A DNA stretch of 64,000 nucleotides from positions 629,407-693,406 of the forward strand of contig WJKK01000001.1 in NCBI GenBank assembly GCA_014729135.1, in the 5' to 3' direction. Position 1 is the first letter of the stretch, and each line of letters begins with the position of its first letter. Made by a program: the position numbers and the translations under genes. Shown piece after piece: positions 9,007 through 60,031 of the stretch. The notes below the pieces were generated by a model. That model was not told the origin of the DNA, ran no database searches, and saw only the letters and a list, made by a program, of their open reading frames with translations. Source of the stretch: a candidate division WWE3 bacterium. Lineage in GTDB: Bacteria; Patescibacteriota; WWE3; UBA101185; UBA10185.

Positions 9007-10764
9007 ATGAACCCAACCTCAAATCCCTCAGAAGAACAAGGACAGGTAGAAGCACGTCAAGAAGAAGCTCGCGAGAAACTCAAAGTAGTGGAGGGACTTT
9101 ATCCGGATGAAGTATTCCAAAAACACCCGGAACTTTTAAGAAATGAAGTAGTAACTTTAGAGGGTCAATCCGCCATAGCTGTAGACTTTCCCAAATTTTC
9201 AACACTGATGAGCACTCCAGAAACAGCCTCAATAGGCGTGGGATTTTTAAATGAGTTTTATCAAAAAGTAGGAGAAATAAGAGAGCAATACGAGGGAATA
9301 ACACTTATAAAATCCGCGGGAGATGAGCTTTTATTTGTAAGCGAGGAGAACGGACTCGTGGACATTCTGTTTTCCTTAGAGATCCAGGAAGCTTTGGATG
9401 AAATGCTTGTTCAAGAAGAGTACCATGCAGTAAGGGAAGTTTTAAAGGACCCCATAACCGGAGAAGACCCCGAAATACACATAGGAATTGACTCTCCGCT
9501 GTCAGATTCTAATGAAAGGCTAAAGTTAAAGTTAATAGAATTTCAGGATGATGAAGGTAACGTAAGCCGCACAGATTTAATGACCATGTGTAAAGTTTTG
9601 CAATGTAAAAAATTGGCTAAGGAATTTATTGTGGATTCTGATGTGGTGTTTCCTCAAGAGGGGGAGGCTAGGAATGTCGTTGAAACCCTGAGGAGAGTTG
9701 GTTATGAACTAGAGGAATTGACGGAGGATGAGAAAGGGCACTTGGGGGTACAAAACCCGCAAAAAACTTATTTTAATTTAAGAAGACTAACGCAAGAGGA
9801 AAGAGAAGAGCGCCAAGAACAGGGGGTGCAGCATAAGAAAGATCGTCGAATTGAAGAGCTAAAAAGGGCTGTTGAGGAACAGGAACTTAGAGAAAAGCCG
9901 GTGCAAAGAGTAGCCTATGCATACACTCCGGAAGAAGCCGAGAAACTTAGAAAAATGGCACCTGTATATGCAAGAGAAGGAGGAGCTCAGTATCCAACAA
10001 ATTCCGAAACACAACAAGTTGAAGCGGCAGAACGACAAACAAAAGGAGAAGCAGCTTTTCTACGAATTCAAGGTCTTGATGAATTTATACAGGCTTTAGA
10101 TGAGCAGCAGGAAATCCCGCGGGATCTGGCAGAAAAACTGGCTATTAGAGTAGGTGCATATGTTGCAAGAAAAGCTACTCGCCCTATGCTTAATGAAAAG
10201 TGGCATATAAAAGAAACTGAACTTGGAGGGGATCACACAATGAATTTAGTTTTGCTAAATGACGTTTATGAAGCGCATGACTTTACAGATGAACAGTTTG
10301 AGGCTTTGCTAGAGTCGTACGATGAGATAAATTCGGGAAGGTTTAAACAGGATATGTTGGAAGCTTTACGGGAGGATCCGGATTTATTGGGAGAATTAGA
10401 AGAAGCTCAGGTTGATCTTAGCGTGATAGAGGAACTTGTTGAGAGTGCTCAATTTTCTGTTATCTCTGCCTTAACAAGATGTGGGAAGCTCGATGAAGAA
10501 ACTCCTGAGTTAGCGTGGATATTAAACGAAGGTGAAGAGGCAAAGACACATTATGCCGGAACAGAGCTTGTTGGAGGAGAGCCTATTAGTTTGGGGGCTC
10601 GGCTGGCATATAAAAATGCTTGGGGACCGGGAATAAGATTTCAGGCAGCAGAAGCTCGTAGATTAAGTGAGGCTGGTAAATTGGATCTTGCTAAGGGTAA
10701 ATTTCAAGAGGTTACAGTAAAAGGATTTGAAGATCCCATATCGATATTTGTATACCAGCCCTAA
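9007..10764 (+). CDS. highly acidic hypothetical protein
   Basis: 585 aa, E/D-rich, no recognisable motif. Confidence 0.4.
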   Translation: MNPTSNPSEEQGQVEARQEEAREKLKVVEGLYPDEVFQKHPELLRNEVVTLEGQSAIAVDFPKFSTLMSTPETASIGVGFLNEFYQKVGEIREQYEGITLIKSAGDELLFVSEENGLVDILFSLEIQEALDEMLVQEEYHAVREVLKDPITGEDPEIHIGIDSPLSDSNERLKLKLIEFQDDEGNVSRTDLMTMCKVLQCKKLAKEFIVDSDVVFPQEGEARNVVETLRRVGYELEELTEDEKGHLGVQNPQKTYFNLRRLTQEEREERQEQGVQHKKDRRIEELKRAVEEQELREKPVQRVAYAYTPEEAEKLRKMAPVYAREGGAQYPTNSETQQVEAAERQTKGEAAFLRIQGLDEFIQALDEQQEIPRDLAEKLAIRVGAYVARKATRPMLNEKWHIKETELGGDHTMNLVLLNDVYEAHDFTDEQFEALLESYDEINSGRFKQDMLEALREDPDLLGELEEAQVDLSVIEELVESAQFSVISALTRCGKLDEETPELAWILNEGEEAKTHYAGTELVGGEPISLGARLAYKNAWGPGIRFQAAEARRLSEAGKLDLAKGKFQEVTVKGFEDPISIFVYQP

Positions 10765-18175: not shown

Positions 18176-19366
18176 CTAGAAACGTAAGATTGCGCCCAAA
18201 TCATCCTTGAGATTAAGCTCGGTGGACATAGCATCCGTCAACGGCACAATCTCTCCACCTGATAAAAGCGTCTTAACGACAAGAAAGTTCACTAAATCCC
18301 GGTTAGTAAAACCTCTCTCTTCTTCTACTATTGCGCCTCTGTTTTCAACGGAATAGTTGCCCCAAATTGTACGGGACGGATTCACAAACAGCACACTTAT
18401 TTTCTCCTCAAAAGCTGCGGGAGCCACCTTTTCCAGCCCTTCCACAACTTGTTCGGATGCCTTATGCTCCTTATAAGAATCTACAAAGTCCATCCGCTTT
18501 TCATCTATGCGATCTTTAACGATCTTCCAGGCTTCTTTAAGAATGTCCTCTGCAGCAGCTTCCTCCGGATTACCTTCAACATAGTCATCGGCTAAATTCG
18601 GATACTTGCCGAAATCTGAAAACTTGTTGTAAAGCTCTGTATCTGCAGCCAAAATCACTAGAGGCCTCTTATCATCTTCGATATCTGTGACAAAATGGTT
18701 CAGAGCCCAATCTACCTCATCCAGAAAAACCTTCTGCTGTTCATCAATAGCAGACTCCTGACTACCGTGTCCGTGTGCTCTTTGTGTCGGCTTTTCTCCC
18801 GGACGCGCTCCTCCCGCGGGATGTCTCTGAAGCTGGCTCTGAATATCATGAGTCCTTAGGGTTTCTTCTATATCTTCGGGCATTACGGTAGGCTCTTTTT
18901 TCTCCCAGTTGCGATTAACGCCTCTGTAAAGGGTAATGTGAGAATAACTAAGCGCTAAAACGTAATAAGTGGAGGATCCAAAGACGTAGGGGACTAGGGG
19001 CTTAACATTGGGAATGTCACTCACATAAAATTGTGCATCTACATTTTTGGGGAACTTGATCATTTCAGTGTAAGTTTCTGATCTAAAGATTGCTAAGCCG
19101 TCTTTTTGCTCCTGCCAAAAGGTAGTGTTTTGTTGTATTTTTTTGAGGGGTTTTAGCAAGTCATTTATTTTTGAAGCCGGCAGCGTCGACTTTTTAAGGA
19201 GTTTTTCTATTTCGTCGGTTTTATTTTTGAGGTGAATTTGTGCCTTTTCGTTGTTTTGCCAAACCGGACTCGTCGGAATGTAAAGAGAAATAACAGGAGG
19301 TTTGACCTGCCGCTGTAAAAGATTTTTAAGACGTTTTCTGGGATTCTGCTGTTTGGTAATTTTCAT
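18176..19366 (-). CDS. hypothetical protein (possible eRF1/Pelota-like fold)
   Basis: 396 aa. Central Gly/His-rich loop HPAGGARPGEKPTQRAHGHGSQE between two mixed alpha/beta regions; family not securely recognised. Confidence 0.4.
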   Translation of the reverse strand: MKITKQQNPRKRLKNLLQRQVKPPVISLYIPTSPVWQNNEKAQIHLKNKTDEIEKLLKKSTLPASKINDLLKPLKKIQQNTTFWQEQKDGLAIFRSETYTEMIKFPKNVDAQFYVSDIPNVKPLVPYVFGSSTYYVLALSYSHITLYRGVNRNWEKKEPTVMPEDIEETLRTHDIQSQLQRHPAGGARPGEKPTQRAHGHGSQESAIDEQQKVFLDEVDWALNHFVTDIEDDKRPLVILAADTELYNKFSDFGKYPNLADDYVEGNPEEAAAEDILKEAWKIVKDRIDEKRMDFVDSYKEHKASEQVVEGLEKVAPAAFEEKISVLFVNPSRTIWGNYSVENRGAIVEEERGFTNRDLVNFLVVKTLLSGGEIVPLTDAMSTELNLKDDLGAILRF

Positions 19367-19437: not shown

Positions 19438-19465
19438 GGGGACAGTCCTCTTAGAGGACTGTCCC
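19438..19465. promoter_or_regulatory. perfect 13-bp-arm palindrome GGGACAGTCCTCT-TA-AGAGGACTGTCCC abutting a TATAAT box upstream of xseA
   Basis: Inverted repeat read directly from the sequence; TATAAT lies at 19467-19472 and the xseA ATG at 19479. Confidence 0.5.
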
Positions 19466-19478
19466 TTATAATAAATCC

Positions 19479-20816
19479 ATGGAAGATCACAGCGAAAAAA
19501 TCTTAACGGTTGGAGAATACCTTGAAGTTCTCAACGAATACATCAAACCTGTCAACTTCAGCATAATTGGGGAAGTTAGCTCCGTAACCGACAGAAGCGG
19601 AGGAGCTGTATTTTTCTCAGTCTCCGATGAGGAAGAACAGGCAGTATTAAACTGCGTCATCTGGAGAAATGTTTACAGAGGGCTTGGATTTAAACTCGAA
19701 GAAGGCATGAAAATCAAAATGACAGGTCATCCCAACATCTACAAACCCCGCGGAAGCCTCTCCTATGTTGCACGATCCATAATTCCAACGGGGGAAGGCG
19801 CCCTGTTAAAAGCCTTTGAAAAACTAAAAGAAACCTTAAAAAAAGAAGGATTCTTTGCACCTGAAAGAAAACAAAGACTCCCTAACTACATCACAAAAAT
19901 CGGCTTAATAACAGCAAAACAAAGCGACGCCATAAAAGACTTTGAAACCCACTTAGGCAACTTTGGTGCACAAGTTTATGTCCATGATGTTAGGGTAGAA
20001 GGCTTCTCAGCAGTAGAAAACATTGTAAAAGCCATTAAAGCCTTTAATGAAAGCAGCCTAGCTCGCGAAATAGATGTTTTAGTTTTAACCAGAGGGGGAG
20101 GAAGCTTGGAAAGCCTGCAAGCATTTAACTCAGAAGCAGTTGCTAGAGCAATATACTCCTCGAAAATACCCGTACTATCAGCAATAGGACATGAACGAGA
20201 TGTTACAATTTCCGATCTAGTGGCGGATGTTAGAGGCTCTACTCCAACAGATGCCGGCGAAATTTTATCTAAAGATTGGCGAGAAGCAGAAAGTAAAATC
20301 CAAACTACGCAAGAAAAAATATTTTCAAGATTCAAAAGACAACTTATAACCGATGCTGATTACGTGGCCCACCAAAAGGAGCGCATTATTGATAAATTCG
20401 AAAGACTAATCCAAAACCGGCAAAGTTACGTGAGAAGACTTTCTACAAATCTTTTTATAAATTTTAGAGGAGTTTTTCATAGATTTGGCAAGCTAAGTCA
20501 AAAATTTCAAATGAACTCGATGAGATTTGAAGCTCTTTTAAAGAAGCAAAGATCTACTGTTCAAAGATCCAGGGATTCCTTAATTAGAGGGTATGCTCAA
20601 ATATATAAAATAGCTAAAACCCGGTTAAAACAAGCAGAAAGATTGCTAGAATCAAATGATCCTCAAAAAAAATTGGAGCAAGGCTATTCTATTATGCGAA
20701 ATGAAGAGGGAAAAGTGATTAAGGCTGTTAAAAGCATTACTAAGGGTGATATACTTGTTTCAGAACTAACCGATGGTAAAGTTAAATCTCAGGTGGAGGA
20801 AATTTCGGCATCTTAA
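19479..20816 (+). CDS. xseA: exodeoxyribonuclease VII large subunit
   Basis: N-terminal OB fold, then the catalytic core VLVLTRGGGSLESLQAFNSEAVARAIYSSKIPVLSAIGHERDVTISDLVAD. Confidence 0.8.
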   Translation: MEDHSEKILTVGEYLEVLNEYIKPVNFSIIGEVSSVTDRSGGAVFFSVSDEEEQAVLNCVIWRNVYRGLGFKLEEGMKIKMTGHPNIYKPRGSLSYVARSIIPTGEGALLKAFEKLKETLKKEGFFAPERKQRLPNYITKIGLITAKQSDAIKDFETHLGNFGAQVYVHDVRVEGFSAVENIVKAIKAFNESSLAREIDVLVLTRGGGSLESLQAFNSEAVARAIYSSKIPVLSAIGHERDVTISDLVADVRGSTPTDAGEILSKDWREAESKIQTTQEKIFSRFKRQLITDADYVAHQKERIIDKFERLIQNRQSYVRRLSTNLFINFRGVFHRFGKLSQKFQMNSMRFEALLKKQRSTVQRSRDSLIRGYAQIYKIAKTRLKQAERLLESNDPQKKLEQGYSIMRNEEGKVIKAVKSITKGDILVSELTDGKVKSQVEEISAS

Positions 20817-22396: not shown

Positions 22397-23836
22397 CTAA
22401 GCAACCGTAAAAACCGACAAAGAATTAGTATTCCCCGGATCCTTAATTCGCTTCCCATGCACCAACAAAATAGTTTCACCTTCCTCCAAAAAACCATCCG
22501 CTTTTAACCGGGCCATTAAAACATCAGGGTCCGTAAAATCCTTCTCCTTAAAATTCAAATAAACCGGAACTACTCCATAAGTCATTGTTAAAGTCTCTAC
22601 AGTTTTTTGCTGATCGCTCAAGGCCAAAATGGGAACCTTAGGGCGATAACTTGAAAAAACACGTGCGGTATAGCCTGTCTGAGTCCCCACCAAAAGCTTA
22701 TCTATGTGAACACCGCTAAAAGGTACCAGCATAGTTAGAGCAGCGCGAACAACTGCATGCGTCCGATCTAACGAGTCGGGAATATAATCTTCTGCAGCCG
22801 TTGTATGCTTTTCATTATGGGCTGCAATACTGGTCATAAAGCGCACTGCCTCCACAGGGTGGGCTCCTACAGCGCTTTCCTCCGAAAGCATTATTGCATC
22901 AGTTCCATCGTAAATAGCACCTGCCACATCGGCTGCCTCCGCTCGAGTAGGCAAAGGATTTTCCACCATCGACTGAAGCATTTGAGTTGCAACTATTACA
23001 GGCTTTGAAGCTTCCCGGCACTTGTTAATGATCTGCTTTTGGTAGTAGGGCAGCTGCTCCAATGGAGTTTCTATACCCAAATCCCCTCGAGCTATCATAA
23101 TTGCGTCAGAAGCTGCTATTACCTCGTCAATGTTATCCAGACCCTTTTGACTTTCTACCTTAGCCACCATTTGCGCGTTTATTTTGCGATCTTTTAGTTC
23201 AGCGCGAAGGGTCTCTAAATCCTTAGCAGAACGAACAAAGGAGAGGGCTACAAAATCCGCTTTAGTTTTTGCTGCAGCATCCAACTTGTCTAGATCGGTA
23301 TCGATAAGGGAGGGGAGAGCTAGATCTTTTCCAACTAGATTTAAGCTTTTGTTATTTTGGATGATTCCTTTGTTTAAAATTTGAGCCTTTATTGTTTGTG
23401 GGGTAAGTTTTTTAGTAACTTTAAAATTATAGAAACCATCTGCAATGCTAAATTTGTCTTCGGGTTCTAAGGCCTCAATAACTGCTTGTTGTGGCAAATA
23501 AATGTAAGGATCCTCGTGTGTTTCTTGACTAGCGTAGTTGGCGTTTGAGGTTAAAGGGATTTCTGCGTTTTTTTCTAGAGGAATCCCTATTCCATTGGAG
23601 GTTTTTATGCGAATTTCCGGACCTTGAAGGTCAATCATGATTCCAATAGGGATTTTAAGTTTGTCGGCTATTTCTTGAACACGATCTATTCTTTCCAAGT
23701 GCCAGTCTGTGACGTTGTGCTTCATGTTAAAGCGAAAAACATTTACACCGGCTTTGATTAAGTTTTCTATTTTATCGGGGGAGTCGGAGGAAGGACCTAT
23801 TGTGGCTACTATTTTGGACAGTTTCTGAAGTTTCAT
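22397..23836 (-). CDS. pyk: pyruvate kinase
   Basis: KIVATIGPSSDSPDKIENLIKAGVNVFRFNMKHN N-terminus; MIARGDLGIE; MLQSMVENPLPTRAEAADVAGAIYDGTDAIMLSEESAVG. Start set to the Met of MKLQKL. Confidence 0.85.
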   Translation of the reverse strand: MKLQKLSKIVATIGPSSDSPDKIENLIKAGVNVFRFNMKHNVTDWHLERIDRVQEIADKLKIPIGIMIDLQGPEIRIKTSNGIGIPLEKNAEIPLTSNANYASQETHEDPYIYLPQQAVIEALEPEDKFSIADGFYNFKVTKKLTPQTIKAQILNKGIIQNNKSLNLVGKDLALPSLIDTDLDKLDAAAKTKADFVALSFVRSAKDLETLRAELKDRKINAQMVAKVESQKGLDNIDEVIAASDAIMIARGDLGIETPLEQLPYYQKQIINKCREASKPVIVATQMLQSMVENPLPTRAEAADVAGAIYDGTDAIMLSEESAVGAHPVEAVRFMTSIAAHNEKHTTAAEDYIPDSLDRTHAVVRAALTMLVPFSGVHIDKLLVGTQTGYTARVFSSYRPKVPILALSDQQKTVETLTMTYGVVPVYLNFKEKDFTDPDVLMARLKADGFLEEGETILLVHGKRIKDPGNTNSLSVFTVA

Positions 23837-23886
23837 TACTTTTTTATGGTAACACAACTGGAAAAGTAACAAAGGGACATAACAAA

Positions 23887-23914
23887 GGGACAGTCCTCTT
23901 AAAGGACTGTCCTC
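23887..23914. promoter_or_regulatory. GGGACAGTCCTCTTAAAGGACTGTCC palindrome (same motif family as at 19438) in the pyk upstream region
   Basis: Inverted repeat ggacagtcct/aggactgtcc read from the sequence. Confidence 0.45.
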
Positions 23915-24050
23915 TTTTGAAATCCTAGTTTAACTAGAATAGGAGAAAATGCCTCGATAGTCCCTCTGAACTCTAGGTAAAACCTTTCCCTGCACAAAAA
24001 CCATATAACAATTTCTACTTATAGTAGATTTACTGAAACAAAATTAGAAA

Positions 24051-24077
24051 GGACTGTCCCCGTAGAGGACTGTCCCC
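24051..24077. promoter_or_regulatory. two direct copies of the GGACTGTCCCC half-site upstream of the Hjc-like gene
   Basis: ggactgtcccc-gtaga-ggactgtcccc. Confidence 0.4.
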
Positions 24078-24123
24078 TCATCCCGATTCCCGCATCCTCC
24101 CACAAGTATGATAGGATTAAAAG

Positions 24124-24468
24124 GTGCCTGGAAGTTACTCACGAAATAAAGGTCGAAGACTTGAACAAGAAATTGTCAACGTACTGAAAGATGCCGGTAT
24201 TGATGCAAAAAGGATTAGCATGGTTGAAACCGGACATCATATGAAAGGCGATATCCTTGTTGCCAATCACTTAAAATGCGAGGTTAAAGGAGGGTCACAC
24301 GTACCCAAGTTTTTATATAACGCTCGAAAAGATGGAGAGGATATTCTGTTTGCGCGCAGGGACCGACAGGATTGGCTTGTTTGCATGGACTTAGAATGGT
24401 TTATTGAAAACTTCCCGGAGGTTTTAAAAAAGAAGATTGCTGAACAACTAGAGGAAGTGGTGGAATAA
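24124..24468 (+). CDS. Hjc-like PD-(D/E)XK nuclease (Holliday junction resolvase-like)
   Basis: NKGRRLEQEIVNVLKDAGI...GDILVANHLKCEVKGG matches the Hjc pattern KGS.FER.LV..L...G...............PDIIA.....IEVKS. Confidence 0.5.
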   Translation: MPGSYSRNKGRRLEQEIVNVLKDAGIDAKRISMVETGHHMKGDILVANHLKCEVKGGSHVPKFLYNARKDGEDILFARRDRQDWLVCMDLEWFIENFPEVLKKKIAEQLEEVVE

Positions 24469-27880: not shown

Positions 27881-29386
27881 CTAGTAACAAGAATAAATGA
27901 AAACTAGATCCTCATAAGGATCGGAAAAGACTTTTTCCAAGTTAGCGCAAACATCCACATTCATTCGGGAAGGATCTAATCCATTGGGGCGGTCTATATC
28001 CCTTGAGGTTACAAAATAATCCATTTGAGACTGCCACTCCGCAACTGCCACGCCTTTGTAATAGTAATTAAAACTTTCGATGTTATCAGGAATCCAAACC
28101 GTTTTATCGCGTCCTTTTGTGTTTAAATAATCAGCTGCTTGAGCAAAATATTCCCCGCTATTTTCATAAACTCCTGTTTTTAAGGCTGTGGGAGATCCTC
28201 CAAGAAGGGGAGAGTAGTAAGCGGAGTTCACCGGGAAGTACTGTAGGCAAATGAATCCGGAGAATAAAACTACCAAAGCCAAGATCAGGTTCTTATGGGC
28301 ACGTTTAAGCTGCTCTATATAAAACGCAACTGTCAGCAAGATAAAAGGGAAGAAAACTAGAGCATAACGGTCTATCTTTTTAGTGGATAAAGTTAGAAAA
28401 AGAAGGTAATTTGCAAGGCCGGCAAGAATCCAAAAGGCTTTTTTATTTTGCAGACTCTTTTTTATAGGAACTTGTATTAAAAATCCCACGAACAAGAGCA
28501 AACTAATAGGGGAGAGCTTAAAGACTAGAATAACGGGATAGTAGATATACTTCAATGCTCCGGGGAAAAGGGCGGCACGGGAATCTGTTGCGACGGCTTT
28601 AAAGATAGCGTTGTAGAGATTGGTGAAAACGTAGCCGGGGGCTACCCAAGTTGCGGGAAATAAAACCAGGAAGGTTATTGTGAACCCTGCCAAATAGAGA
28701 AGAAAAGGAGTAAATTTGCGGTTTTGTAGAAAATTACTGACTAATAGAGCCAATAGAATAGGTGCCAGAATTAACGACGTTAGTTTGGAGAGAACAGCAA
28801 GTGCAAAAAAGACCGCTGAAATTAGGAGAAATTTAGTTTTTTTGGAAGGTTCCACAGGTGGCGCAGCGAAATTAAAACGCCAATGCAGAAGAGACAAAAA
28901 AGCAGTAAAAGCAAAATACGTCTCCATGGAAGTTAGATGGAACCAGCGATCAATGCCTATTAAATAAGGTTCTGCGGTAATTAGGACTGCATAAATTAGA
29001 GCTATCTTGTTACTAAAAAGCTTTGAAATTAGGTGGATTTGGAAAAGTAAGAGGCCTGCTAAGACGAGATTAAGTTGAATCTTTGAAAGCATGTGGATGG
29101 TGGGGTAATAATCGGCATTTTCAAGCGTTTTGGGGGTTGTTTTTAGAATGTAGCGCTGAAATGAAGTAGCTGCTTGTTTTAGGGGAGCGTTTAGAAGCAT
29201 GAGTGTAACCCCCGGCTGGTAGTGCTGATAAGTGGATTTGAGATCGCCCGTTTTTATAGCTTGTAGAAAGTTGAGGCTACGCCGGTGCCAACGGGCTGCA
29301 TCAGAGTTGGAAATGTCGTTACCTGTACCTAAAACGCGAAGAAGTAGAAACATACATGCAATAAGAATGTAGACCTGCTTTTTCAT
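27881..29386 (-). CDS. GT-C fold glycosyltransferase (ArnT/PMT-like, GT39/GT83-like)
   Basis: 501 aa polytopic. N-terminal loop GTGNDISNSDAARWHRRS...GDLKSTYQHYQPGVTLM resembles the first periplasmic loop of ArnT/PMT proteins. Confidence 0.55.
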   Translation of the reverse strand: MKKQVYILIACMFLLLRVLGTGNDISNSDAARWHRRSLNFLQAIKTGDLKSTYQHYQPGVTLMLLNAPLKQAATSFQRYILKTTPKTLENADYYPTIHMLSKIQLNLVLAGLLLFQIHLISKLFSNKIALIYAVLITAEPYLIGIDRWFHLTSMETYFAFTAFLSLLHWRFNFAAPPVEPSKKTKFLLISAVFFALAVLSKLTSLILAPILLALLVSNFLQNRKFTPFLLYLAGFTITFLVLFPATWVAPGYVFTNLYNAIFKAVATDSRAALFPGALKYIYYPVILVFKLSPISLLLFVGFLIQVPIKKSLQNKKAFWILAGLANYLLFLTLSTKKIDRYALVFFPFILLTVAFYIEQLKRAHKNLILALVVLFSGFICLQYFPVNSAYYSPLLGGSPTALKTGVYENSGEYFAQAADYLNTKGRDKTVWIPDNIESFNYYYKGVAVAEWQSQMDYFVTSRDIDRPNGLDPSRMNVDVCANLEKVFSDPYEDLVFIYSCY

Positions 29387-29413
29387 AAACCCATTCTACC
29401 AAGGTTGGGGGTA

Positions 29414-29439
29414 GGGGACAGTCCTCTTAAAGGAATGTC
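29414..29439. promoter_or_regulatory. GGGGACAGTCCTCTTAAAGGAATGTC motif copy in the divergent promoter region
   Basis: Same motif family as at 19438 and 23887, with a degenerate right arm. Confidence 0.4.
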
Positions 29440-29541
29440 AAGTGTAGCGAAGCTACCTTGACTTCTTAGGTAAATGAGAGCGAAGCGATCATTTAGCTAT
29501 GCTGTCCCCTTCCCTCTCATCGAACCTGCTATACTAAAAGT

Positions 29542-30504
29542 ATGCAAAAAATCGTCGATTGGATTAAATCCAACAAACTCACCACCGTACTCATTTTGGC
29601 CATCGCCTTTCTACTCCTGGGAAACACACCTAAAAGAGGGCTACTCAACCAACTAAGCGCCTCCCCCACACGCTCGAAATCCTCCTGGAATGGAGGGCTT
29701 TCCAACATGGCCTTAGAAACAGCCGACTATGCTGCACCCACCTCCATGGAATCCCGAAGCATGCCCGGCATCCCGACACCTCCGGCAGACGCCGCCCCAC
29801 AACCCGAAGTAAAAGACCGAATGAAAGTCATGAACGCCTCAATCTCCCTACACGTTGAAGACGTCAGAAAAACTATAGATGCAATTGAAACCTACGTCAC
29901 AAACATTGGGGGCTACACAATCAACCAACACATAAACACTCCACAAGAATCCTCCGGCGGCTCCATTAACGTGAGAGTCCCAACAGAAAAATTGGATGAA
30001 ACCCTGGCCTATTTTAGAGAGCGCGCCGTTAACGTAGTTTATGAAAGCAAAAACGGGCGAGATATAACTGATGAATACATGGATGCAGAAGCTCGTCTAG
30101 AGACTTTGCAAAAAACCAAGGCGATCTTTGAGAATATGCTGGATGAGGCCACCGAATTTGACGACATTTTAAGGGCGCAAAAGGAAATTCTAAATGTGCA
30201 AAATCAAATCGACAGAATAAAAGGTCAATTGGAGTACATGAAAGGAACTGCGGAAACAGCCCGAATTTCAGTGAATCTTTCAACGGATGAGCTGGAACTG
30301 GGATATGCTCCTGCTAATGCATGGCGACCCAAAGTGGTGTTTAGGAAAGCTGTAAGACAACTGGTTATTAATTTGAGAAGTTTAGGCAATGGTGTAATTT
30401 GGCTGGCGGTTTACAGTGTAATTTGGGCTCCTGTTGTGGCAATAGTAATCTTTATCAAAAAGAGAAAATCCAAGAAGTCAACAACCAAAAAAAGCAAGAA
30501 ATAA
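29542..30504 (+). CDS. DUF4349 domain membrane-anchored protein
   Basis: N-terminal TM helix, then the soluble helical/beta domain ...ISLHVEDVRKTIDAIETYV...IDRIKGQLEYMKG..., then a C-terminal TM helix and a Lys-rich tail. Confidence 0.45.
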   Translation: MQKIVDWIKSNKLTTVLILAIAFLLLGNTPKRGLLNQLSASPTRSKSSWNGGLSNMALETADYAAPTSMESRSMPGIPTPPADAAPQPEVKDRMKVMNASISLHVEDVRKTIDAIETYVTNIGGYTINQHINTPQESSGGSINVRVPTEKLDETLAYFRERAVNVVYESKNGRDITDEYMDAEARLETLQKTKAIFENMLDEATEFDDILRAQKEILNVQNQIDRIKGQLEYMKGTAETARISVNLSTDELELGYAPANAWRPKVVFRKAVRQLVINLRSLGNGVIWLAVYSVIWAPVVAIVIFIKKRKSKKSTTKKSKK

Positions 30505-36646: not shown

Positions 36647-36962
36647 TTTGTGTTCGCAACGCGAACCCAAATGGCTGATCATCCGCCTACGGCGGATGAA
36701 CTGCCTAACAAGTCCGTAGGACTTGTTACATCCATCGAAATGCTCGCGTTCGCTCGCATTTGCGATGGCCCGTACAACTTTTGACAAAGTTGTACGGTCG
36801 CAAACAAGAGTAATTAGCATTTCGATGACTCAGGTAAATAGGAGCGTACTAAAGCGACTATTTAGCTGTGCCTAACAAGTCGCAATGCGACTTGTTATAG
36901 TCTACAACTTTTAGCAAAGTTGTACGGTCACAAACAAAAATAACTAGCATTTCGATGACTTA
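36647..36962. repeat. block of consecutive hairpins with an internal ~95-135 nt tandem duplication, immediately downstream of tRNA-Gly
   Basis: Hairpins gttcgc-aac-gcgaac, catccgcc-tac-ggcggatg, taacaagtcc-gta-ggacttgtta, ccgtacaacttt-tga-caaagttgtacgg. The second unit repeats taacaagtcgc-aat-gcgacttgtta and acaacttt-tag-caaagttgt. Both units end with aaacaa..ta..tagcatttcgatgact. Confidence 0.5.
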
Positions 36963-37016
36963 ACAAAATGAAAAAAAGTTGAGAGGCTACTATAAAAATT
37001 TATAAAACACAAAAAT

Positions 37017-46127: not shown

Positions 46128-47456
46128 TTAAATAGGGTGCCAAATGTGAAACCCATCTTTCCATTGGGCTAGATACCAATAGCAAGATATCCAATATAAA
46201 ACGGTTACCAAATAAAACTTCCAATTATTAAAAGGGACAGTCCTTGGAGGGGACAGCACATCGAAATCCTCCTTTGTCGGATTGTCGATGAGTTGTCGAA
46301 GTAGCAACTTCGACACTCCTTTGAAAGGACTGTCCTCTGATTTCAATGTGCTGTCCCTTAAAACACCTATAAGAAATATGGGAAAACCCCACAACAAGTA
46401 CGTGCGATTTAGAACTGGTGTTAGGAGATAGAAGGATAGAAAGGGGAGTGACGCAATGGAAAATTTGTTTTTTATGTGCAAACGCCCTGTTAGATTTTTA
46501 ACCTTACCTTCTTTACAGAAGTTATTTACGAACTGCAACAACTTATTGGCAGTTATTAAAATCCACCCGGAGAAGATGCTGCCTAAAGAATAAAATCCAA
46601 ATGGAATAATCCTAAAAAGCTCTACTGAATAATAGTAACTAATGTAATACAAAAAAGGACGGCCTTGAACAAAGCGATCTCCATGAACAAGGAGAGCTCC
46701 TTGAATGTAAGTCCAAAAATCCTGAAAATTTGTCATAAAGGGCAAACTAAAAGCAAAGGCAGTAATAAATCCGGCAGTCAAAAACTTTAGAGGTTTTTTA
46801 GACCGGAACAAAAACAACGGAAAAGTTATAACTGCAAAGGTCTTAAACAAAACAGAAAGCGCAAAGAAAAGCCCGGTCAAAACGTCATCCTCTTCCAAGT
46901 GATAAAGTGCTAAAAGCAAAAATAAAATAGGCACTGAATCGAAACCGGCCAGAGAATTTTTCAAAACCAAATAAAAATTAAACATCCAGGCTGTAACTGC
47001 AAAAAGAGCAGCCAACCTATCCTTTTTAGACAGGTACCACCAAAGAAAAATTCCAACCCCTAAATTAGCTAAGATTCCCGGCAAATGCAGCAGAAAAAAC
47101 GGAGAACACCAGTTAAAATCCAGCTTTAAAATCAAAGTGCAAATTACCGAAAACACATACAAAAAAGTATTTACATATAAAATCCCCGGAAAATAAGCAT
47201 AACCCTTGTTTGTGGGATCGTTTTCCAAGTTGGCATAAGAAGTTAGCGTCCATTCATAGGGATTTTTCCCTGCAACTAAATCGTAAATGGCTTTTTTATG
47301 TGTGGTGTAATCCCCTCCGGAGGTGGCTTGAAGCGCAAGATTTAAGCGCTTTATAGACCCAAATCCTAAAACTAAAATTGCAAATAAGGATAACAATTTA
47401 GGAACATAAACTTTTAAAACAGTTGAGGACCTTTTATTACAAGGAAACAAACACAT
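46128..47456 (-). CDS. GT-C fold glycosyltransferase, GT87/DUF2029-like (paralogue of the 50144..51445 gene). The C-terminus is uncertain because it reads through a large palindrome
   Basis: Shared blocks with the paralogue: DLVAGKNPYEWT, YAYFPGILYVNTF, HGDRFVQGRPFLYY, PVLNRTYLLWGFPIFLIGVL. The 3' ~110 codons overlap the GGACAGTCC composite palindrome at 46234-46358. Confidence 0.5.
   Translation of the reverse strand: MCLFPCNKRSSTVLKVYVPKLLSLFAILVLGFGSIKRLNLALQATSGGDYTTHKKAIYDLVAGKNPYEWTLTSYANLENDPTNKGYAYFPGILYVNTFLYVFSVICTLILKLDFNWCSPFFLLHLPGILANLGVGIFLWWYLSKKDRLAALFAVTAWMFNFYLVLKNSLAGFDSVPILFLLLALYHLEEDDVLTGLFFALSVLFKTFAVITFPLFLFRSKKPLKFLTAGFITAFAFSLPFMTNFQDFWTYIQGALLVHGDRFVQGRPFLYYISYYYSVELFRIIPFGFYSLGSIFSGWILITANKLLQFVNNFCKEGKVKNLTGRLHIKNKFSIASLPFLSFYLLTPVLNRTYLLWGFPIFLIGVLRDSTLKSEDSPFKGVSKLLLRQLIDNPTKEDFDVLSPPRTVPFNNWKFYLVTVLYWISCYWYLAQWKDGFHIWHPI
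46234..46358. repeat. ~125-nt composite palindrome built from GGACAGTCC-family arms plus an inner GTCGAAGT hairpin
   Basis: gggacagtccttggaggggacagcacatcgaaatcc ... gttgtcgaagtagcaacttcgacac ... ggactgtcctctgatttcaatgtgctgtccc; the outer arms are near-perfect reverse complements. Confidence 0.5.
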
Positions 47457-47541: not shown

Positions 47542-47739
47542 ATGTACAATTGGTCAACGGATGAAAAGAAGCTTAAAAATCACCCTCAAAAACACAAACT
47601 CTGGAAACTGGAGCAACTAATCAACTTTGGCCTTGGAAAAGAAAGGTTAAACCGAAAAGATCTTAAAAGAAATCTGAAAAAACTAACAATAGACCCTCAA
47701 AAAAAGAAATATCTTCAATTCCTACTAAAAAAGGCCTAA
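47542..47739 (+). CDS. small basic protein, possible cognate partner (antitoxin-like) of the downstream AbiEii-like gene
   Basis: 65-aa Lys-rich ORF ending at the ATG of the 47739 gene (4-nt overlap ATGA). Confidence 0.25.
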   Translation: MYNWSTDEKKLKNHPQKHKLWKLEQLINFGLGKERLNRKDLKRNLKKLTIDPQKKKYLQFLLKKA

Positions 47740-48410
47740 TGAGTCTACTTACAAAGCAACAGAAAAAGTTTTTACACTTATTTTCGCAGGAGAAACTTTT
47801 AACAAAAAGGTTCTACCTTACAGGAGGAACCGCCCTTATAGAGTATTACATTCCCTATAGATACTCAGATGACTTGGACTTTTTTTCCGAGGCAGAAATC
47901 AACATCGACGCCGTTTTAACTTTTTTTAAATCAATCAAAAAAGAACTAGGCTATAAAGAATTCGATTACAACACTTCGTATAACCGAAATTTAATCTTCT
48001 TAAACTTTGGAGATTATGTTCTAAAAACCGAATTCACATACTTTCCTTTTCCGCCAATTCAGATAAATAAGCCTAAAGAAGGCATCCAAATAGATAGTCT
48101 CATTGATATAGCTGTAAACAAACTCTTTACTATATATCAAAACCCAAGGGGGCGTGATTTCATGGATTTATATATGATTCAAGAGAAAGAGAATTTTGAC
48201 ATGGAGCTTTTAATATCGCGTGCTCGTGCTAAATTTGACTGGCATGTTGATCCATTAAAACTGGGGGCGCAATTTATGTTAGCTAAGGAAACTAAGGACG
48301 AGCCCGTTTTGGTAAAAGATCTAAAAAGAGAGAATTGGGAAGACTATTTCATTGAAGCTGCAAAAAGCTTAGAGAGTGAAATTTTCGAAAGTAAGGATTC
48401 CCAGACTTAG
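47739..48410 (+). CDS. AbiEii/AbiGii-like nucleotidyltransferase (type IV TA toxin family fold)
   Basis: FYLTGGTALIEYYIPYRYSDDLDFF matches the GGTAL....HR.S.DLDF nucleotidyltransferase motif. Confidence 0.55.
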   Translation: MSLLTKQQKKFLHLFSQEKLLTKRFYLTGGTALIEYYIPYRYSDDLDFFSEAEINIDAVLTFFKSIKKELGYKEFDYNTSYNRNLIFLNFGDYVLKTEFTYFPFPPIQINKPKEGIQIDSLIDIAVNKLFTIYQNPRGRDFMDLYMIQEKENFDMELLISRARAKFDWHVDPLKLGAQFMLAKETKDEPVLVKDLKRENWEDYFIEAAKSLESEIFESKDSQT

Positions 48411-53435: not shown

Positions 53436-53512
53436 CGGGGTGTAGCTCAGTTGGCTAGAGTGCGCGCTTTGGGAGCGTGAGGTCCCGGGTTCGAGTCCCG
53501 GCACCCCGACCA
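53436..53512 (+). tRNA. tRNA-Pro (anticodon TGG)
   Basis: Acceptor cggggtg/caccccg, D-arm gctc-agttggcta-gagt, anticodon stem cgcgc/gcgtg with loop tttggga, T-arm ccggg-ttcgagt-cccgg, 3' acca. Confidence 0.8.
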
Positions 53513-53579
53513 GGGTTTTTAGTAGCTTGTTATTCCCATAACGGTAATAAATAATGCGGTTCTAAACCTTGATAACCAA

Positions 53580-53600
53580 ACAGGACAACTCGAACTTTTT
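53580..53600. repeat. Repeat B copy (ACAGGACAACTCGAACTTTTT) at the left edge of the GNAT cassette
   Basis: Identical core to 54299-54320; a related copy lies at 59994-60018. Confidence 0.55.
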
Positions 53601-53618
53601 CAGTGTTAAAATTAGTGT

Positions 53619-54215
53619 ATGGACATAAAATCACCGCAAAACTTAATGGAACTAACAGATGTATTCAGGTTTGTCGAAAAGGTGCTAAAATTGGAACCAG
53701 GCCATATAAGGGATCTCAGCTTTTACAAGAAGCAATTTGAAACAACACCCTACTTTTCTATTTATGTCGAAAAAGACAACGAAGTATTAGGGGCATTGCT
53801 GGCAGTGCCTCAGGGAAACGATGGACTGTTAGTAGGTGAAGTAGCTGTATCAGAAAAGGCTAGGGGAAAAGGAATAGGTTCCTTGTTACTTACCGAAATT
53901 GAAAAAAGAGCCAAGAAATACAAAAAGAAGAATGTCCTATTGGGATCACTAGAGACTGCAGAAGAATTTTACTTAAAGCACCAATATAAACCCAAATTAT
54001 TCATTCAGCTACAAGGTACCAATAGATTAAAAGAACTAAAGAATTTCGCCAAAGATAATTCTTATGAAAAAGATATTATTTGGGAAAATGAAGGAGATGG
54101 ATTTAGCAAAATAATAATCGAAACTTCAACCATAGACAAAAAACTTCAGGATAAGGCTAAGACATTATCTGGTGCACACACACAATACCTATTTTCAAAA
54201 AAGTTGCAAACATAG
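53619..54215 (+). CDS. GNAT family N-acetyltransferase
   Basis: VAVSEKARGKGIGSLLLTEIEKRAKK is the acetyl-CoA binding motif A (R/Q-x-x-G-x-G/A). Confidence 0.7.
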   Translation: MDIKSPQNLMELTDVFRFVEKVLKLEPGHIRDLSFYKKQFETTPYFSIYVEKDNEVLGALLAVPQGNDGLLVGEVAVSEKARGKGIGSLLLTEIEKRAKKYKKKNVLLGSLETAEEFYLKHQYKPKLFIQLQGTNRLKELKNFAKDNSYEKDIIWENEGDGFSKIIIETSTIDKKLQDKAKTLSGAHTQYLFSKKLQT

Positions 54216-54320
54216 TCCGCTATGGTCGACCAGGATTACAAACATTATTTCCTTACTGTAGCAACAATGAATACCGAGTTCTAAATTTTGGAGACCTAAC
54301 AGGACAACTCGAACTTTTTT
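54202..54320. repeat. composite attC-like junction: 31-nt Repeat A (AGTTGCAAACATAGTCCGCTATGGTCGACCA), a 66-nt spacer, and 22-nt Repeat B (ACAGGACAACTCGAACTTTTTT)
   Basis: Repeat A overlaps the GNAT stop codon. Repeat B overlaps the stop of the minus-strand 54319 gene. The outer termini AAAAAGTT..GTCC and GGAC..AACTTTTT are inverted. Confidence 0.55.
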
Positions 54321-55263
54321 ATTCAATAGTGGTAATTGGCCTACTCTGAGTTATATAAAATGTATTATCCCTATAAGCCCACTCAATATCTTGGGGCTTG
54401 TCGTAAAATGATTCTACTGTTGTACATATCCTTGCTAATTCCTGAATACGTCTATAATCCAACTTTTGACTATACTCTTCTTCGATTTCTTCCCATTCCA
54501 AGCCTTTTAGATCTTTGGGTAAAGCTAACTTTCTATCTTGTTCGGCAATATCAACACGCAAAACTACATCGTATTCCTTGTTATACTCATAAGAATCGGG
54601 GGTCAATTGGCCAGAAACTATACCCTCACCAAGTCCATATACTGCTTCAATAAGCATAATGTTCTTTTGCATTGAAATTGGATGAACTGTAAAGCATATG
54701 CCAGAAATGTCGCTTTGAACCATCTCTTGTACTACAACTGCCACCGCTCCATCTTTTGGTTTTATTTTCCTTTCTAAAGCATAAGTTATCGCTCTGGGGG
54801 AATAAAGAGATGCCCAACATTTTTTTATGTTGTCTATCAGATCTTCTTTAGTAGTGTTTAAATACGTTTCAAGTTCACCCGCCCAAGAATCTGTATCCGA
54901 ATCCTCAGAAGTGGCGGAACTACGGACAGCAACCAAATTCAGGTTTAGTGTATCGTACTGTGTCAAAATTTCATTCTTGAGCTTGTCGGCAATGCTTCCT
55001 TTTGTTATGGCCGCTTGGATTCTTTCACTGGCCTTGTTTATACCATCAAGATTACTTACAGTAACTTTTTCTAAAGAACTACTAATTACCTTTTCTAGTT
55101 CGTTAGTACTCAAAAACTTTTCAAAAGCTCTCGTTGTAACAACAAAACCTTGAGGTATAGGAATACCATACTGATACATCTTTGCCAGGGAAGCTCCCTT
55201 ACCACCAGTAAGTTTATTGTCTGTACACTTTGAATTTTCGAATATAAGAACTAGATCTTCCAT
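54319..55263 (-). CDS. PEP-utilising enzyme, N-terminal ATP-grasp (PPDK_N-like) domain protein
   Basis: KLTGGKGASLAKMYQYGIPIPQGFVVTTRAFEKFL matches the PEP synthase/PPDK nucleotide-binding N-domain. Confidence 0.65.
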   Translation of the reverse strand: MEDLVLIFENSKCTDNKLTGGKGASLAKMYQYGIPIPQGFVVTTRAFEKFLSTNELEKVISSSLEKVTVSNLDGINKASERIQAAITKGSIADKLKNEILTQYDTLNLNLVAVRSSATSEDSDTDSWAGELETYLNTTKEDLIDNIKKCWASLYSPRAITYALERKIKPKDGAVAVVVQEMVQSDISGICFTVHPISMQKNIMLIEAVYGLGEGIVSGQLTPDSYEYNKEYDVVLRVDIAEQDRKLALPKDLKGLEWEEIEEEYSQKLDYRRIQELARICTTVESFYDKPQDIEWAYRDNTFYITQSRPITTIE

Positions 55264-55265
55264 AT

Positions 55266-56768
55266 TTACTCCACAACCTCAACAATACCTTTTACGGCAT
55301 TAACTTTAACTTTATCTCCTGTTTTTATAATTTTTGTAGCGGATTTTGTACCTATTACACAAGGTATTTTAAGCTCCCTGGATACTATAGCTGCATGACT
55401 AGTAATACCACCCTCATTAGTAACTATCGCAGATGATTTTCTTATAGCAGGCATCAAACTTGGCCTAGTATTTCCAATAACTAGAATTGCACCTTCGGGC
55501 ATGCTTTTAACCTTCTTGTTAAAATCTTTATCTCCCCAGTTCATACAATAAGCTTTTCCTTCCACAACACCAGGAAAGGCAGTATTGCCCTCAATTTCTT
55601 TAATGGCATCGTAATTAGGCTTAGGTACTAGTTTGTTGAATTCAGCTATTGCACTGTCTCCATAAACAGACTTAGTAAGAACATCATTCTTTACTAAGAA
55701 TAGGTAGGCTTTGTAGCGATCCTTTGTCTTAAAGCTATCTTCAATATCTTCTTTACTAAAATCAATCTGAACTAGTTCACCAGGAGATAACGCCAACAGT
55801 GTATATGCAGGGATTTGCGTTAGCCTGGAAATTTTATAAACGAGTTCTCTCAACATCCTAAAGTACGCTGACCAAAGAATTCGTAGCTCAAGACGGTAGC
55901 GACCTAAATTTGCTAAACAGTCAGCTACATAAACTGTAGGCATTTCCAAACGGTGCTTATTTATAAATTCTTCTTTATTCACTCTGGCATTCTCGACAGC
56001 TTTGCTAAGCTCTGTTACTTTCTCGGACAAATTAACCTTAGAATCCAAACAATCCCTAAGAAGACCTATATAGTGCTGCAAATCCCAGTGGTCTGCTCCT
56101 TCATTTCCACTTAAGTGGCCATATTTTTTTATATGACTGTCTAGGGCATCTTTAAATTCCTTATAATCGGTAATCGTTTCTAGATTTATATCAGGCAAAA
56201 CATCTTCATATTTAAGTAGCAGTTTAAAAAAATCCTCCTCTTCATGATGCAACATAGATTTCTCCACAGGCGCTGTTAAAACAGCCACTGCTTCAGATAA
56301 ATCATCCTGTTCTAAATCATTAGCTAGATGATCTTCCAATCCTTTTGTAAATTGTGGGTTGGTCATGTTAAAAAAGGCAAACACATCAATTAGGGCCTGG
56401 GAAATATTAGCTAGAAGTTTTTGAATCACCGCCAAATCTTCCACATCATCAAACTGGGTCCTGAACAAGATTTGATCTTCCTTCAACTTCTTCTGTTTTT
56501 TCTTTACAGAATTAATAAATTCTCTATATTGTTCTTTATCCTGAAAATAGCTATAACCAAACTTCCCAGCTGCCTCCAAATCCTCTGGGGAGTGATAGGC
56601 TTCCAATACCTCATTCCTTGCAAATAGCAGCATACCTTTTGAAAAATACCCAAACAACTCTTTTTGCCTATCTACACAAAAAATTGTCCCATGTCCCATT
56701 TCAAATACGGGCGCATCTGCAACTTCCCAGATTTTTTCCCATTTTAGTGGCTCCTTTTTATCTACCAT
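55266..56768 (-). CDS. PEP-utilising enzyme mobile (phosphohistidine swivel) domain protein with a ~370-aa unknown N-terminal region
   Basis: C-terminal GGITSHAAIVSRELKIPCVIG is the phospho-His swivel-domain signature. It is separated by 2 nt from the downstream PPDK_N gene. Confidence 0.65.
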   Translation of the reverse strand: MVDKKEPLKWEKIWEVADAPVFEMGHGTIFCVDRQKELFGYFSKGMLLFARNEVLEAYHSPEDLEAAGKFGYSYFQDKEQYREFINSVKKKQKKLKEDQILFRTQFDDVEDLAVIQKLLANISQALIDVFAFFNMTNPQFTKGLEDHLANDLEQDDLSEAVAVLTAPVEKSMLHHEEEDFFKLLLKYEDVLPDINLETITDYKEFKDALDSHIKKYGHLSGNEGADHWDLQHYIGLLRDCLDSKVNLSEKVTELSKAVENARVNKEEFINKHRLEMPTVYVADCLANLGRYRLELRILWSAYFRMLRELVYKISRLTQIPAYTLLALSPGELVQIDFSKEDIEDSFKTKDRYKAYLFLVKNDVLTKSVYGDSAIAEFNKLVPKPNYDAIKEIEGNTAFPGVVEGKAYCMNWGDKDFNKKVKSMPEGAILVIGNTRPSLMPAIRKSSAIVTNEGGITSHAAIVSRELKIPCVIGTKSATKIIKTGDKVKVNAVKGIVEVVE

Positions 56769-60018: not shown

Positions 60019-60031
60019 ATAAACTGTAAAT

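Follow-up and report, generated by a model that had tools for sequence, protein, structure and literature searches.

Palindromic repeats in the WWE3 window

The window analysed here is a 64-kb stretch of the genome of a candidate division WWE3 bacterium (contig WJKK01000001.1, positions 629,407 to 693,406), and our subject is a short palindrome, GGACAGTCC, that recurs at several places within it. The window has a GC content of about 0.39 and is densely coding, with open reading frames (ORFs) covering about 91% of the sequence and a non-coding fraction of 8.8%; Pfam searches of about 60 ORFs identified housekeeping and cell-envelope genes. The products of xseA and of a 442-aa membrane-protein gene (see below) each have a 100% identical counterpart among the NCBI proteins of a candidate division WWE3 bacterium. 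An earlier sequence-only reading had claimed that the palindrome recurs beyond chance and had proposed either a global operator or a small mobile palindrome akin to the repetitive extragenic palindromic (REP) sequences. The claim of enrichment was confirmed, in that 9 exact matches to GGACAGTCC were found against 0.21 expected, a number reached in none of 100 shuffled sequences. Searches for GGGACAGTCCTCT with at most two mismatches yielded 13 matches against 0.66 expected, and paired GGACWGTCC units at a phase of 16 nt (score of at least 14 out of 18) were found 7 times against 0.2 times in Markov simulations.

Four places in the window contain the repeats, which are organised as six doublets 25-27 nt in length. 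Each doublet consists of two 9-nt GGAC(A/T)GTCC units that are self-palindromic about the central A or T, and the distance from unit to unit is always 16 nt. The basic doublet can fold into a 12-13-bp hairpin on either strand, with energies of -6.6 to -13.7 kcal/mol in single-strand DNA folds, and the copies fold far better as single strands than shuffled sequences do (z -5.5 to -7.2). Five of the six doublets are held by the non-coding fraction, a predominantly extragenic location of the kind that characterises REP systems, and one composite is intragenic. There are also larger forms, namely two diverged copies of a long form of about 95 nt and composites in which a spacer separates two doublets, the latter resembling the REPINs of other bacteria. 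Rfam returned only four tRNAs from the window at gathering thresholds, with only chance miRNA-like matches below them, while a scan of the window for promoter and terminator consensus sequences gave fewer sites than shuffled sequences and was uninformative. Literature string searches for GGACAGTCC, GGGACAGTCCC and GGGACTGTCCC retrieved only primers and eukaryotic sequences.

Doublet a (19438-19465), (G)GGGACAGTCCTCT-T-AGAGGACTGTCCC, is perfectly palindromic (13+1+13), with 13-nt arms that are 100% complementary and a fold of -13.7 kcal/mol (z -5.5). As first described, it abuts a TATAAT box (19466-19471) upstream of xseA, the ATG of which is at 19479 on the plus strand; the 112-nt gap in which it lies is divergent and is bounded on the other side by a baeRF-family-3 gene (18176-19366, minus strand). 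The next two doublets occupy the 251-nt gap between pyk and orf114 (23873-24123). Doublet b, GGGACAGTCCTCTTAAAGGACTGTCCTCT, is palindromic (-12.6 kcal/mol, z -5.6) and precedes the longest pyk ORF (22397-23872, minus strand) by 15 nt; the sequence-only reading had recognised it at 23887, and its end is here corrected to 23915. Doublet c, AAAGGACTGTCCCCGTAGAGGACTGTCCCC, precedes a 114-aa ORF (24124-24468, plus strand). It does contain two units in the same orientation, as had been noted, but starts at 24048 rather than 24051 and extends to 24077. The units are in one orientation, 16 nt apart, because both have T as the centre base; the fold has a central mismatch (-6.6 kcal/mol), and the spacer contains CGTAG. 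The two doublets are inverted relative to each other and form a REPIN-like composite, E2 (23887-24077), with 27-nt arms that are 81% complementary and 136 nt apart, which takes up most of the gap.

The third site is the divergent gap between a 501-aa gene (27881-29386, minus strand) and the DUF4349 gene (29542, plus strand). The copy that had been placed at 29414-29439 lies at that position but runs on to 29509, making a long-form element of 96 nt, E3 (29414-29509, plus strand), with the ends GGGGACAG...CTGTCCCC. It opens with doublet d (29414-29441, GGGGACAGTCCTCTTAAAGGAATGTCA), the second unit of which is degenerate, continues with two internal hairpins and finishes with the terminal inverted CTGTCCCC (29502-29509); the fold of the whole element is -28.9 kcal/mol (z -7.2). 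The composite reported at 46234-46358 is likewise present, but it ends at 46357 and is not intergenic: this 124-nt composite, E4 (46234-46357, minus strand), lies inside a GT87/DUF2029 gene (46128-47456, minus strand). Within it are doublets e (46234-46260) and f (46311-46336) as well as an inverted repeat of 19 nt (46250-46268 and 46339-46357), and the whole composite folds at -32.5 kcal/mol (z -7.1).

The E4 core (46246-46341, minus strand) aligns end to end with E3 with about 64% identical columns. The termini, AG(G/A)GGACAGTCCT... and ...TGCTGTCCCCT, are conserved and the internal hairpins co-vary (GTCAAG..CTTGAC versus GTCGAAGT..ACTTCGAC), and E3 and the E4 core are therefore two diverged copies of one longer element. 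Inverted doublet pairs that form a larger hairpin, a feature of REPINs and of bacterial interspersed mosaic elements (BIMEs), are thus present in E2, and long hairpins with z values of about -7 in E3 and E4. The sequence GGGGACAG occurs at 19438, 29414 and 46249, and in the form CTGTCCCC at 24070 and 29502; it satisfies the motif GGGGWSAS, also written GGGG[AT][CG]A[CG].

Insertion of the repeats and comparison with relatives

The gene that hosts E4 codes for a 442-aa multi-pass membrane protein. The identical NCBI protein (100%) is named DUF2029 domain-containing, and homologues are annotated as members of the glycosyltransferase 87 family. E4 is translated in frame as approximately R367-P408, and this block of about 36-42 residues is missing from all nine aligned homologues (356-425 aa, 44-62% identity), in which the conserved segments on either side, TPVLNRTYLLWG.P.FL.G and FY...YW.FCYWYLAQWKDGFHIWHPI, are kept. 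To judge from this alignment, the E4 copy is an insertion in a protein-coding gene.

For the intergenic copies we compared the window with three relatives of the WWE3 lineage, about 50 kb in total, that are syntenic with different parts of it: L113 (21 kb; xseA 67% identical), L143 (14.8 kb; xseA 59% identical) and L141 (14.5 kb; orthologues of the GT87 and 501-aa genes 57-58% identical). None of the three contains a doublet, and L141 has a single lone AAGGACCGTCCTT. The baeRF-xseA gap of L113 retains the TATAAT-N7-ATG geometry and has no palindrome. The divergent gap between the DUF4349 and 501-aa genes is 155 nt in the window versus 24 nt in L141; both gaps share the block CTTTTAGTATA.CA on the DUF4349 side, and the extra DNA in the window consists of the 96-nt E3 and short flanks. 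E3 and E4 are thus insertional, and the extra block in the GT87 protein, the difference in gap length and the doublet-free relatives together fit a mobile element. Since the relatives are only 57-67% identical at the protein level, these comparisons give neither the timing nor the direction of the events.

Two further differences in gene content were observed in the same regions. In L113 (13098-14705) and L143 (5254-6537), dinB, encoding a Y-family polymerase (IMS/IMS_C), is located just upstream of the orf113 orthologue, which is 76% identical in L113. A tblastn search gave no match to dinB in the window, where the E2 gap (23873-24123) takes its place; the difference may reflect a deletion linked to the repeats. 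The baeRF family 3 gene, which encodes an archaeo-eukaryotic release-factor-like protein (E 2e-29), is found beside xseA in L113 and is absent in L143.

The comparisons bear directly on the possibility that the palindromes are operators of a global transcription factor. A helix-turn-helix (HTH) dimer would then bind each 9-mer, two dimers would be placed 16 bp apart, and the regulon would include xseA, pyk, the orf114 operon and the DUF4349 gene. As expected of an operator, divergent promoter gaps account for three of the four sites and doublet a adjoins the xseA -10 box; the units are palindromic, with paired centre bases that need not complement each other in other genomes, as recognition of double-stranded DNA would predict, and the 9-N7-9 layout recalls operators of the CIRCE type. 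However, the motif is missing from the orthologous promoters of L113, L141 and L143, and its position relative to the -10 boxes is not fixed, being adjacent to that of xseA and 15 nt from that of the 501-aa gene. The long forms and composites add about 60-130 nt of structured DNA, the neighbouring genes have no functional theme in common, and palindromes of the same architecture bracket transposase genes elsewhere, with the same core in two loci of the candidate phyla radiation (CPR, or Patescibacteria). The E4 copy is also located within a coding sequence, an outcome that had been named beforehand as counting against a promoter-specific role. The operator proposal does not withstand these observations, and we regard it as highly improbable.

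Insertions with inverted ends could also be miniature inverted-repeat transposable elements (MITEs) moved by a cut-and-paste DDE transposase, in which case GGGGACAG and CTGTCCCC would be the ends, the 27-nt palindromes minimal end-to-end remnants and the parent DDE transposon an element with GGGGACAGTCC ends. E3 and E4 end in inverted repeats of 8-9 nt, lengths of 96-124 nt are in the usual range of MITEs, and E4 is surrounded by a perfect 6-nt direct repeat, TTAAAA (46228-46233 and 46358-46363). Yet a target-site duplication was sought at every copy and a direct repeat found at E4 only, and an addition of 124+6 nt is not divisible by three, yet the host gene is still in frame. Complexes that transpose double-stranded DNA need more than 27 nt, whereas this length is usual for HUH enzymes that recognise hairpins, such as those of IS200/IS605 and REPs. 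A DDE transposase was found neither in the window nor around the 112 loci listed from other genomes, the clustering of ORFs from these loci gave no other recurrent neighbour, and the sole protein found to be bracketed by these repeats is a Y1 HUH enzyme. A MITE family is, in our estimate, very unlikely.

Occurrence of the doublet pattern in other phyla

A search of one genome per species (596 Gb) for the pattern GGACAGTCC-N7-GGACTGTCC identified at least 112 loci in many phyla. Because a 9-bp stem could arise by chance among terminators, we examined the bases outside the search pattern. Among the matches listed, the arm extends to the self-palindromic GGGAC-W-GTCCC in 43 of 57 genomes that were hit once, whereas the opposite G/C arrangement was found in none. 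Several metagenome-assembled genomes (MAGs) contain many copies, with at least 12 in Gaiella F1F2.bin.157 and at least 6 in one Planctomycetota MAG, and same-orientation neighbours are here also 16 nt apart, which the search pattern did not require. The self-palindromic arms, the lack of the opposite arrangement and the multi-copy MAGs led us to reject chance terminator hairpins; by their sequences, the cross-phylum matches are a family rather than random hairpins.

In a crude ORF call on the matches listed, ORFs take up 72% of the DNA and 72% of the copies are outside them, and a crude test of the flanks revealed no dominant one. When 5,234 ORFs from the 112 listed loci were clustered all against all, no protein family emerged that recurs beside the motif. 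A scan of viral contigs gave 0 matches, and hence no sign of phage carriage.

Stable hairpins could alternatively be structural elements of the host that owe their positions to selection, for instance terminators acting in both directions, hairpins that stabilise mRNA or binding sites of nucleoid proteins. The stability of the hairpins is in line with this explanation, as is the placement of the doublets in other phyla, which are mostly located between convergent or co-directional genes (among the matches listed) and in some cases have A and T tracts in the manner of intrinsic terminators; in the window, the terminator scan flags 23912-23888. Most window copies, however, are upstream of genes and without T tracts, and independent terminators would not share an 11-13-nt arm both within and across genomes. 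This explanation, which also leaves the intragenic copy and the transposase association unaccounted for, is extremely unlikely.

Two of the groups retrieved by the search showed peculiarities of their own. In Planctomycetota MAGs there are tandem arrays with periods of 27 nt or 30 nt (L093, 1704-1870; L054, 536-640), for example GGGGACAGTCCCCGAAGGAGATCGAAAGG x4, from which it follows that the self-palindromic unit can expand by slippage. In Cohnella, the hairpin TGGACAGTCCGCG(G/A)AACGGACTGTCCA is found at an orthologous locus in four species (L014, L056, L069 and L091). It does not extend to GGGAC/GTCCC, and the search pattern has probably picked up a conserved but unrelated structure here.

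Association with Y1 transposase genes

The link to a transposase was found by inspection of a locus from Ca. Microgenomates (L005) in which two copies are 844 bp apart. These identical doublets, CAAGGACAGTCCTTATCAAGGACTGTCCTTG, bracket a 234-aa ORF with a score of 35.1 bits to Pfam Y1_Tnp (cut-off 23), and the best NCBIfam match of which is the REP-associated tyrosine transposase (RAYT), at a sub-threshold score (44 versus 80 bits). The protein gave no match in a single-sequence search of the PDB and only a weak match to ISDra2 in a profile search (E 0.06). An AlphaFold model based on 20 homologues (pLDDT 88.9) had as its best PDB match in Foldseek 4ER8, the E. coli RAYT with a REP hairpin (E 2e-7), with the TnpA proteins of ISDra2 and IS608 behind. 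In the CPR family, H95-x-H97 (HUH) and Y155-x-H-x-N-P are invariant, and Pfam Y1_Tnp matches 20 of 20 aligned members. It is also the only domain that Pfam detects in the 20 CPR homologues (E up to 5), although the model shows a C-terminal helical extension of about 75 aa. These criteria of HUH motif, tyrosine and fold were applied to the CPR family, not to a protein of the WWE3 genome.

There are more than 7,600 homologues of the L005 type, about 234 aa in length, and the few with an organism name are all labelled Patescibacteria. The further distinct homologue loci that we fetched are bracketed by lineage-specific palindromes of the same build in seven cases out of seven, which brings the bracketed Y1 loci to eight distinct ones from Patescibacteria and one from Gaiella; two of the CPR loci have the exact GGACAGTCC core. 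One locus with the exact core, L140, has an A-A-T triple on the 3' side. The palindromes of L130 and L136 are AAAGACAGTCTT..AAGACTGTCTTT with the core AGACAGTCT, those of L132 and L134 are GGGTCAGTCC..GGACTGACCC with the cores GGTCAGTCC/GGACTGACC, and L138 and L139 have palindrome variants of their own. The upstream palindrome usually adjoins the ATG of the Y1 gene. The Y1 gene is found with dnaE/ATP synthase in L130 and L136 and with an M23 peptidase/TPR gene in L005, L138 and L140, and such conserved housekeeping neighbourhoods are as expected for single-copy, vertically inherited RAYTs. In Gaiella (Actinomycetota), an ORF picked by a hidden Markov model (HMM) of the family (Y1_Tnp, 37.6 bits) is bracketed by GGGGACAGTCCCC-TGT-GGGGACTGTCCCC and GGGGACCGTCCCC-TCG-GGGGACTGTCCCC, which are GGGGAC(A/C)GTCCCC doublets. 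Palindromes with the architecture of the window copies thus bracket RAYT-like genes in other genomes.

Some additional features of the Y1 loci were observed. A direct repeat of about 31 nt, CGTCGATCCGGCCGGGCCGGAGCGCCGACGG, is present around the Gaiella Y1 gene and its two doublets (L103, 156-186 and 997-1027), and it looks as if the whole unit was inserted or duplicated at that site. In L130, L132, L134 and L136, the block TTTTGTAGGTTATAAGCG(G/A)T(A/T)GAC is located about 40-70 nt upstream of the Y1 start (near 9930-9960) and precedes the upstream palindrome, which is thereby placed between a TTGAC-like hexamer and the ATG; this suggests that the enzyme's own promoter is overlapped by its predicted binding hairpin. 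The assembly GCA_040960175.1 contains two paralogous Y1 genes of 234-239 aa on different contigs (L134 and L138), each with a different palindrome (GGGTCAGTCC..GGACTGACCC and GGACGGACCC..GGGTCCGTCC). Unless the bin is mixed, this pairing is one enzyme to one repeat, as in REPIN-RAYT systems.

Probable origin and proposed mobilisation of the repeats

We conclude that the GGACAGTCC palindromes are most probably a non-autonomous repeat family of the REP/TIR (terminal inverted repeat) type, mobilised by a RAYT-class enzyme encoded outside the window. The mobile element proposed by the sequence-only reading is thus upheld by the bracketing of transposase genes elsewhere, the absence from syntenic relatives, the in-frame insertion and the gap of 155 nt in place of 24 nt. 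We infer that this genome encodes a RAYT-like gene and that its enzyme moves the copies. By analogy with E. coli TnpA_REP and IS200/IS605, the enzyme would belong to the RAYT/TIRYT class of Y1 HUH tyrosine transposases, and its gene would be present once in the 864-kb genome, outside the window, and is expected to be bracketed by GGGACAGTCC doublets. The enzyme would recognise the hairpin on single-stranded DNA, cut beside it and re-ligate it elsewhere, and copies would be seeded slowly where they are tolerated, that is, in the roomy intergenic gaps of a compact genome and in a surface loop of a membrane protein. Promoter effects on neighbouring genes would accordingly be a by-product and not the motif's reason for existing, and single copies may affect nearby promoters incidentally, for instance doublet a at the xseA -10 box.

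Several observations weigh against mobilisation by a RAYT-class enzyme. The window covers 64 kb of the 864-kb genome, and a cognate enzyme in this organism is predicted rather than observed; no Y1 transposase gene was found in the window, either by Pfam among the approximately 60 ORFs or with the family HMM among all six-frame ORFs. The only transposase-like gene that Pfam identified there encodes a tyrosine recombinase and is located in an unrelated repeat-rich region near 57 kb. In most of the RAYT-bearing CPR loci examined, the palindromes are found only beside the Y1 gene and are undispersed, and dispersal as in the WWE3 window is therefore the exception. Three of the four window sites are in divergent (5') gaps, unlike the cross-phylum copies, of which 28 are between convergent and 4 between divergent genes (both neighbours called; among the matches listed). 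The classical 5' GTAG tag occurs at one copy only, E3 (29410-29413), and the flanks of the other copies are unrelated. The TTAAAA repeat around E4 resembles a target-site duplication, which HUH enzymes do not make. A Pfam-detectable C-terminal HTH domain is absent from the 20 CPR homologues, and RAYT group 1, or subclass 2.1, has been published as not being associated with REPINs (bioRxiv 10.1101/2021.07.10.451892; PMC6006769).

It is also conceivable, if rather unlikely, that the 234-aa Y1 enzyme is an ancient domesticated component of Patescibacteria with a host-level function in the processing of single-stranded DNA hairpins, and that the dispersed copies are recruited sites. The enzyme is found in thousands of lineages at 55-70% identity, as a single copy, in conserved housekeeping neighbourhoods and invariably between palindromes of its own; the position of the upstream palindrome next to the Y1 start codon suggests autoregulation, and groups from CPR to Actinomycetota, Planctomycetota and others have retained the recognition core GGAC-W-GTCC (GGGGWSAS). 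If so, the copies by leaderless-type -10 boxes would serve, for example, promoter remodelling or replication-coupled regulation. The operator, the DDE-type MITE and the selected terminators are, even when considered jointly, unlikely. A core site of a tyrosine recombinase (9-7-9), parS-like sites, restriction sites and sequencing-adapter artefacts were dropped, there being no feature in support of them.

A RAYT-mobilised family in WWE3 would mean that RAYT/TIRYT repeat systems, which are known mainly from Proteobacteria, also operate in CPR/Patescibacteria, the genomes of which are tiny, gene-dense and usually described as repeat-poor. Our literature search retrieved no relevant pairing of RAYT or REPIN with Patescibacteria. 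In the WWE3 family, one copy is translated inside a membrane glycosyltransferase-like protein and others would have rebuilt promoter gaps. For annotators, the family offers an explanation for GGGGACAG-type palindromes that might otherwise be mistaken for operators or terminators, and the 234-aa protein and the 27-nt hairpin are a candidate compact enzyme-substrate pair for biochemistry.

Other features of the window

Several genes have leaderless-type starts, in which a hexamer resembling a -10 box precedes the start codon by 6-7 nt and Shine-Dalgarno spacing is lacking, and the same was seen in the relatives (for example L113, 9985-10003). Examples are TATAAT-N7-ATG at xseA (19466-19479), TAGAAT-N6-ATG at the 501-aa gene (29387-29400, minus strand) and TATACT-N6-ATG at the DUF4349 gene (29527-29544). 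The pattern suggests that leaderless transcripts are common in this lineage.

The repeat-rich stretch (53436-63919) is located downstream of tRNA-Pro (53436-53512). A 35-nt block, AAAAAGTTGCAAACATAGTCCGCTATGGTCGACCA, is present in four copies (54198, 56838, 59805 and 60817), and conserved blocks of about 40-50 nt, AACAGGACAACTCGAACTTTTT..., end at gene starts (53559, 54278, 59991 and 62607). Its genes include those for a 231-aa tyrosine recombinase (57032-57727) and an AbiEii toxin (63236-63919), together with several ORFs that have no Pfam match; a second AbiEii gene is located outside the stretch (47739-48410). The region looks like an integrated island or a cassette-like array with shared promoter and 3' modules. 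Another direct repeat, at 36773-36969 downstream of tRNA-Gly, consists of two 67-nt copies, 85% identical and 130 nt apart. The palindrome TACAACTTTT..AAAGTTGTA stands at the start of each copy, and the repeat has no relation to the GGACAGTCC family.

Comparison with known repeat systems

With the CIRCE operators of HrcA, the window doublets have in common the 9-nt inverted arms, the short spacer and some promoter overlap, but in CIRCE the sites at orthologous heat-shock promoters are conserved from phylum to phylum, whereas the window sites are not conserved at orthologous promoters, and one of these is intragenic. E4 resembles the Rickettsia palindromic elements (RPEs) and intragenic REPs, in that an in-frame palindrome adds a peptide to a loop that tolerates it and the remainder of the protein is conserved. 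The RPE sequence is unrelated, however, and only one intragenic copy was seen in the window; we know of no transposase link for RPEs. Intragenic REP dimers that encode 20-30 residues have been described previously (PMC3733652).

The IS200/IS605 elements and the palindrome-associated transposable elements (PATEs), which derive from them and lack the transposase, are similar in their Y1 HUH chemistry, in the sub-terminal hairpins at both ends of the gene and in the use of single-stranded DNA substrates. Unlike IS200/IS605, the CPR gene is single-copy and syntenic and has no TnpB partner, and it is the hairpins that have multiplied, not the gene.

In REPIN-RAYT systems, single-copy RAYTs are bracketed by their own repeats (bioRxiv 10.1101/2021.07.10.451892; PMC3337134). 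The window family has in common with the REP/BIME-RAYT system of E. coli and the REPIN-RAYT system of Pseudomonas that it consists of short dispersed, mostly extragenic palindromes and that inverted doublets form a long hairpin. The CPR loci have the single-copy Y1 HUH gene with its own repeats, the vertical inheritance and the fixed context, and the best structural match of the modelled CPR protein is 4ER8. The differences are that the window family is without a conserved 5' GTAG tag and has self-palindromic arms at a fixed 16-nt phase, that most of its copies are in 5' divergent gaps at a density far below the hundreds of copies in Proteobacteria, and that the CPR protein exceeds classical RAYTs in length and does not reach the NCBIfam cut-off for RAYT.

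In the TIRtrons, the inverted repeats on either side of the RAYT-like TIRYT genes have GGGGWSAS in common, and some of these repeats are self-complementary and form families of dimers and clusters (Di Nocera et al. 2013, PMC3733652). The consensus GGGG[AT][CG]A[CG] has been reported for TnpA_Y1 subclass 2.1, to which the TIRtrons correspond and which is RAYT group 1 of Bertels et al. 2017, and no REP-like sequences were found beside the genes of this subclass (Quentin et al. 2018, PMC6006769). The subclass is defined by a C-terminal DnaA_C/HTH domain (Bac_DnaA_C/HTH_23/HTH_28), unlike the CPR protein, in which none is detectable by Pfam, and the published dispersed copies are few, unlike the six doublets in 64 kb, the long forms and the intragenic copy of the WWE3 window. 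Like the TIRtrons, the repeats described here bracket a single-copy RAYT-like Y1 gene in inverted orientation and occur in many phyla, GGGGACAG and GGGTCAG fit the motif, and some repeats are self-complementary and are present as close dimers or clusters and as moderately abundant dispersed families. The GGGGWSAS motif is hereby tied to a doublet architecture of self-palindromic 9-11-nt units at a 16-nt phase.

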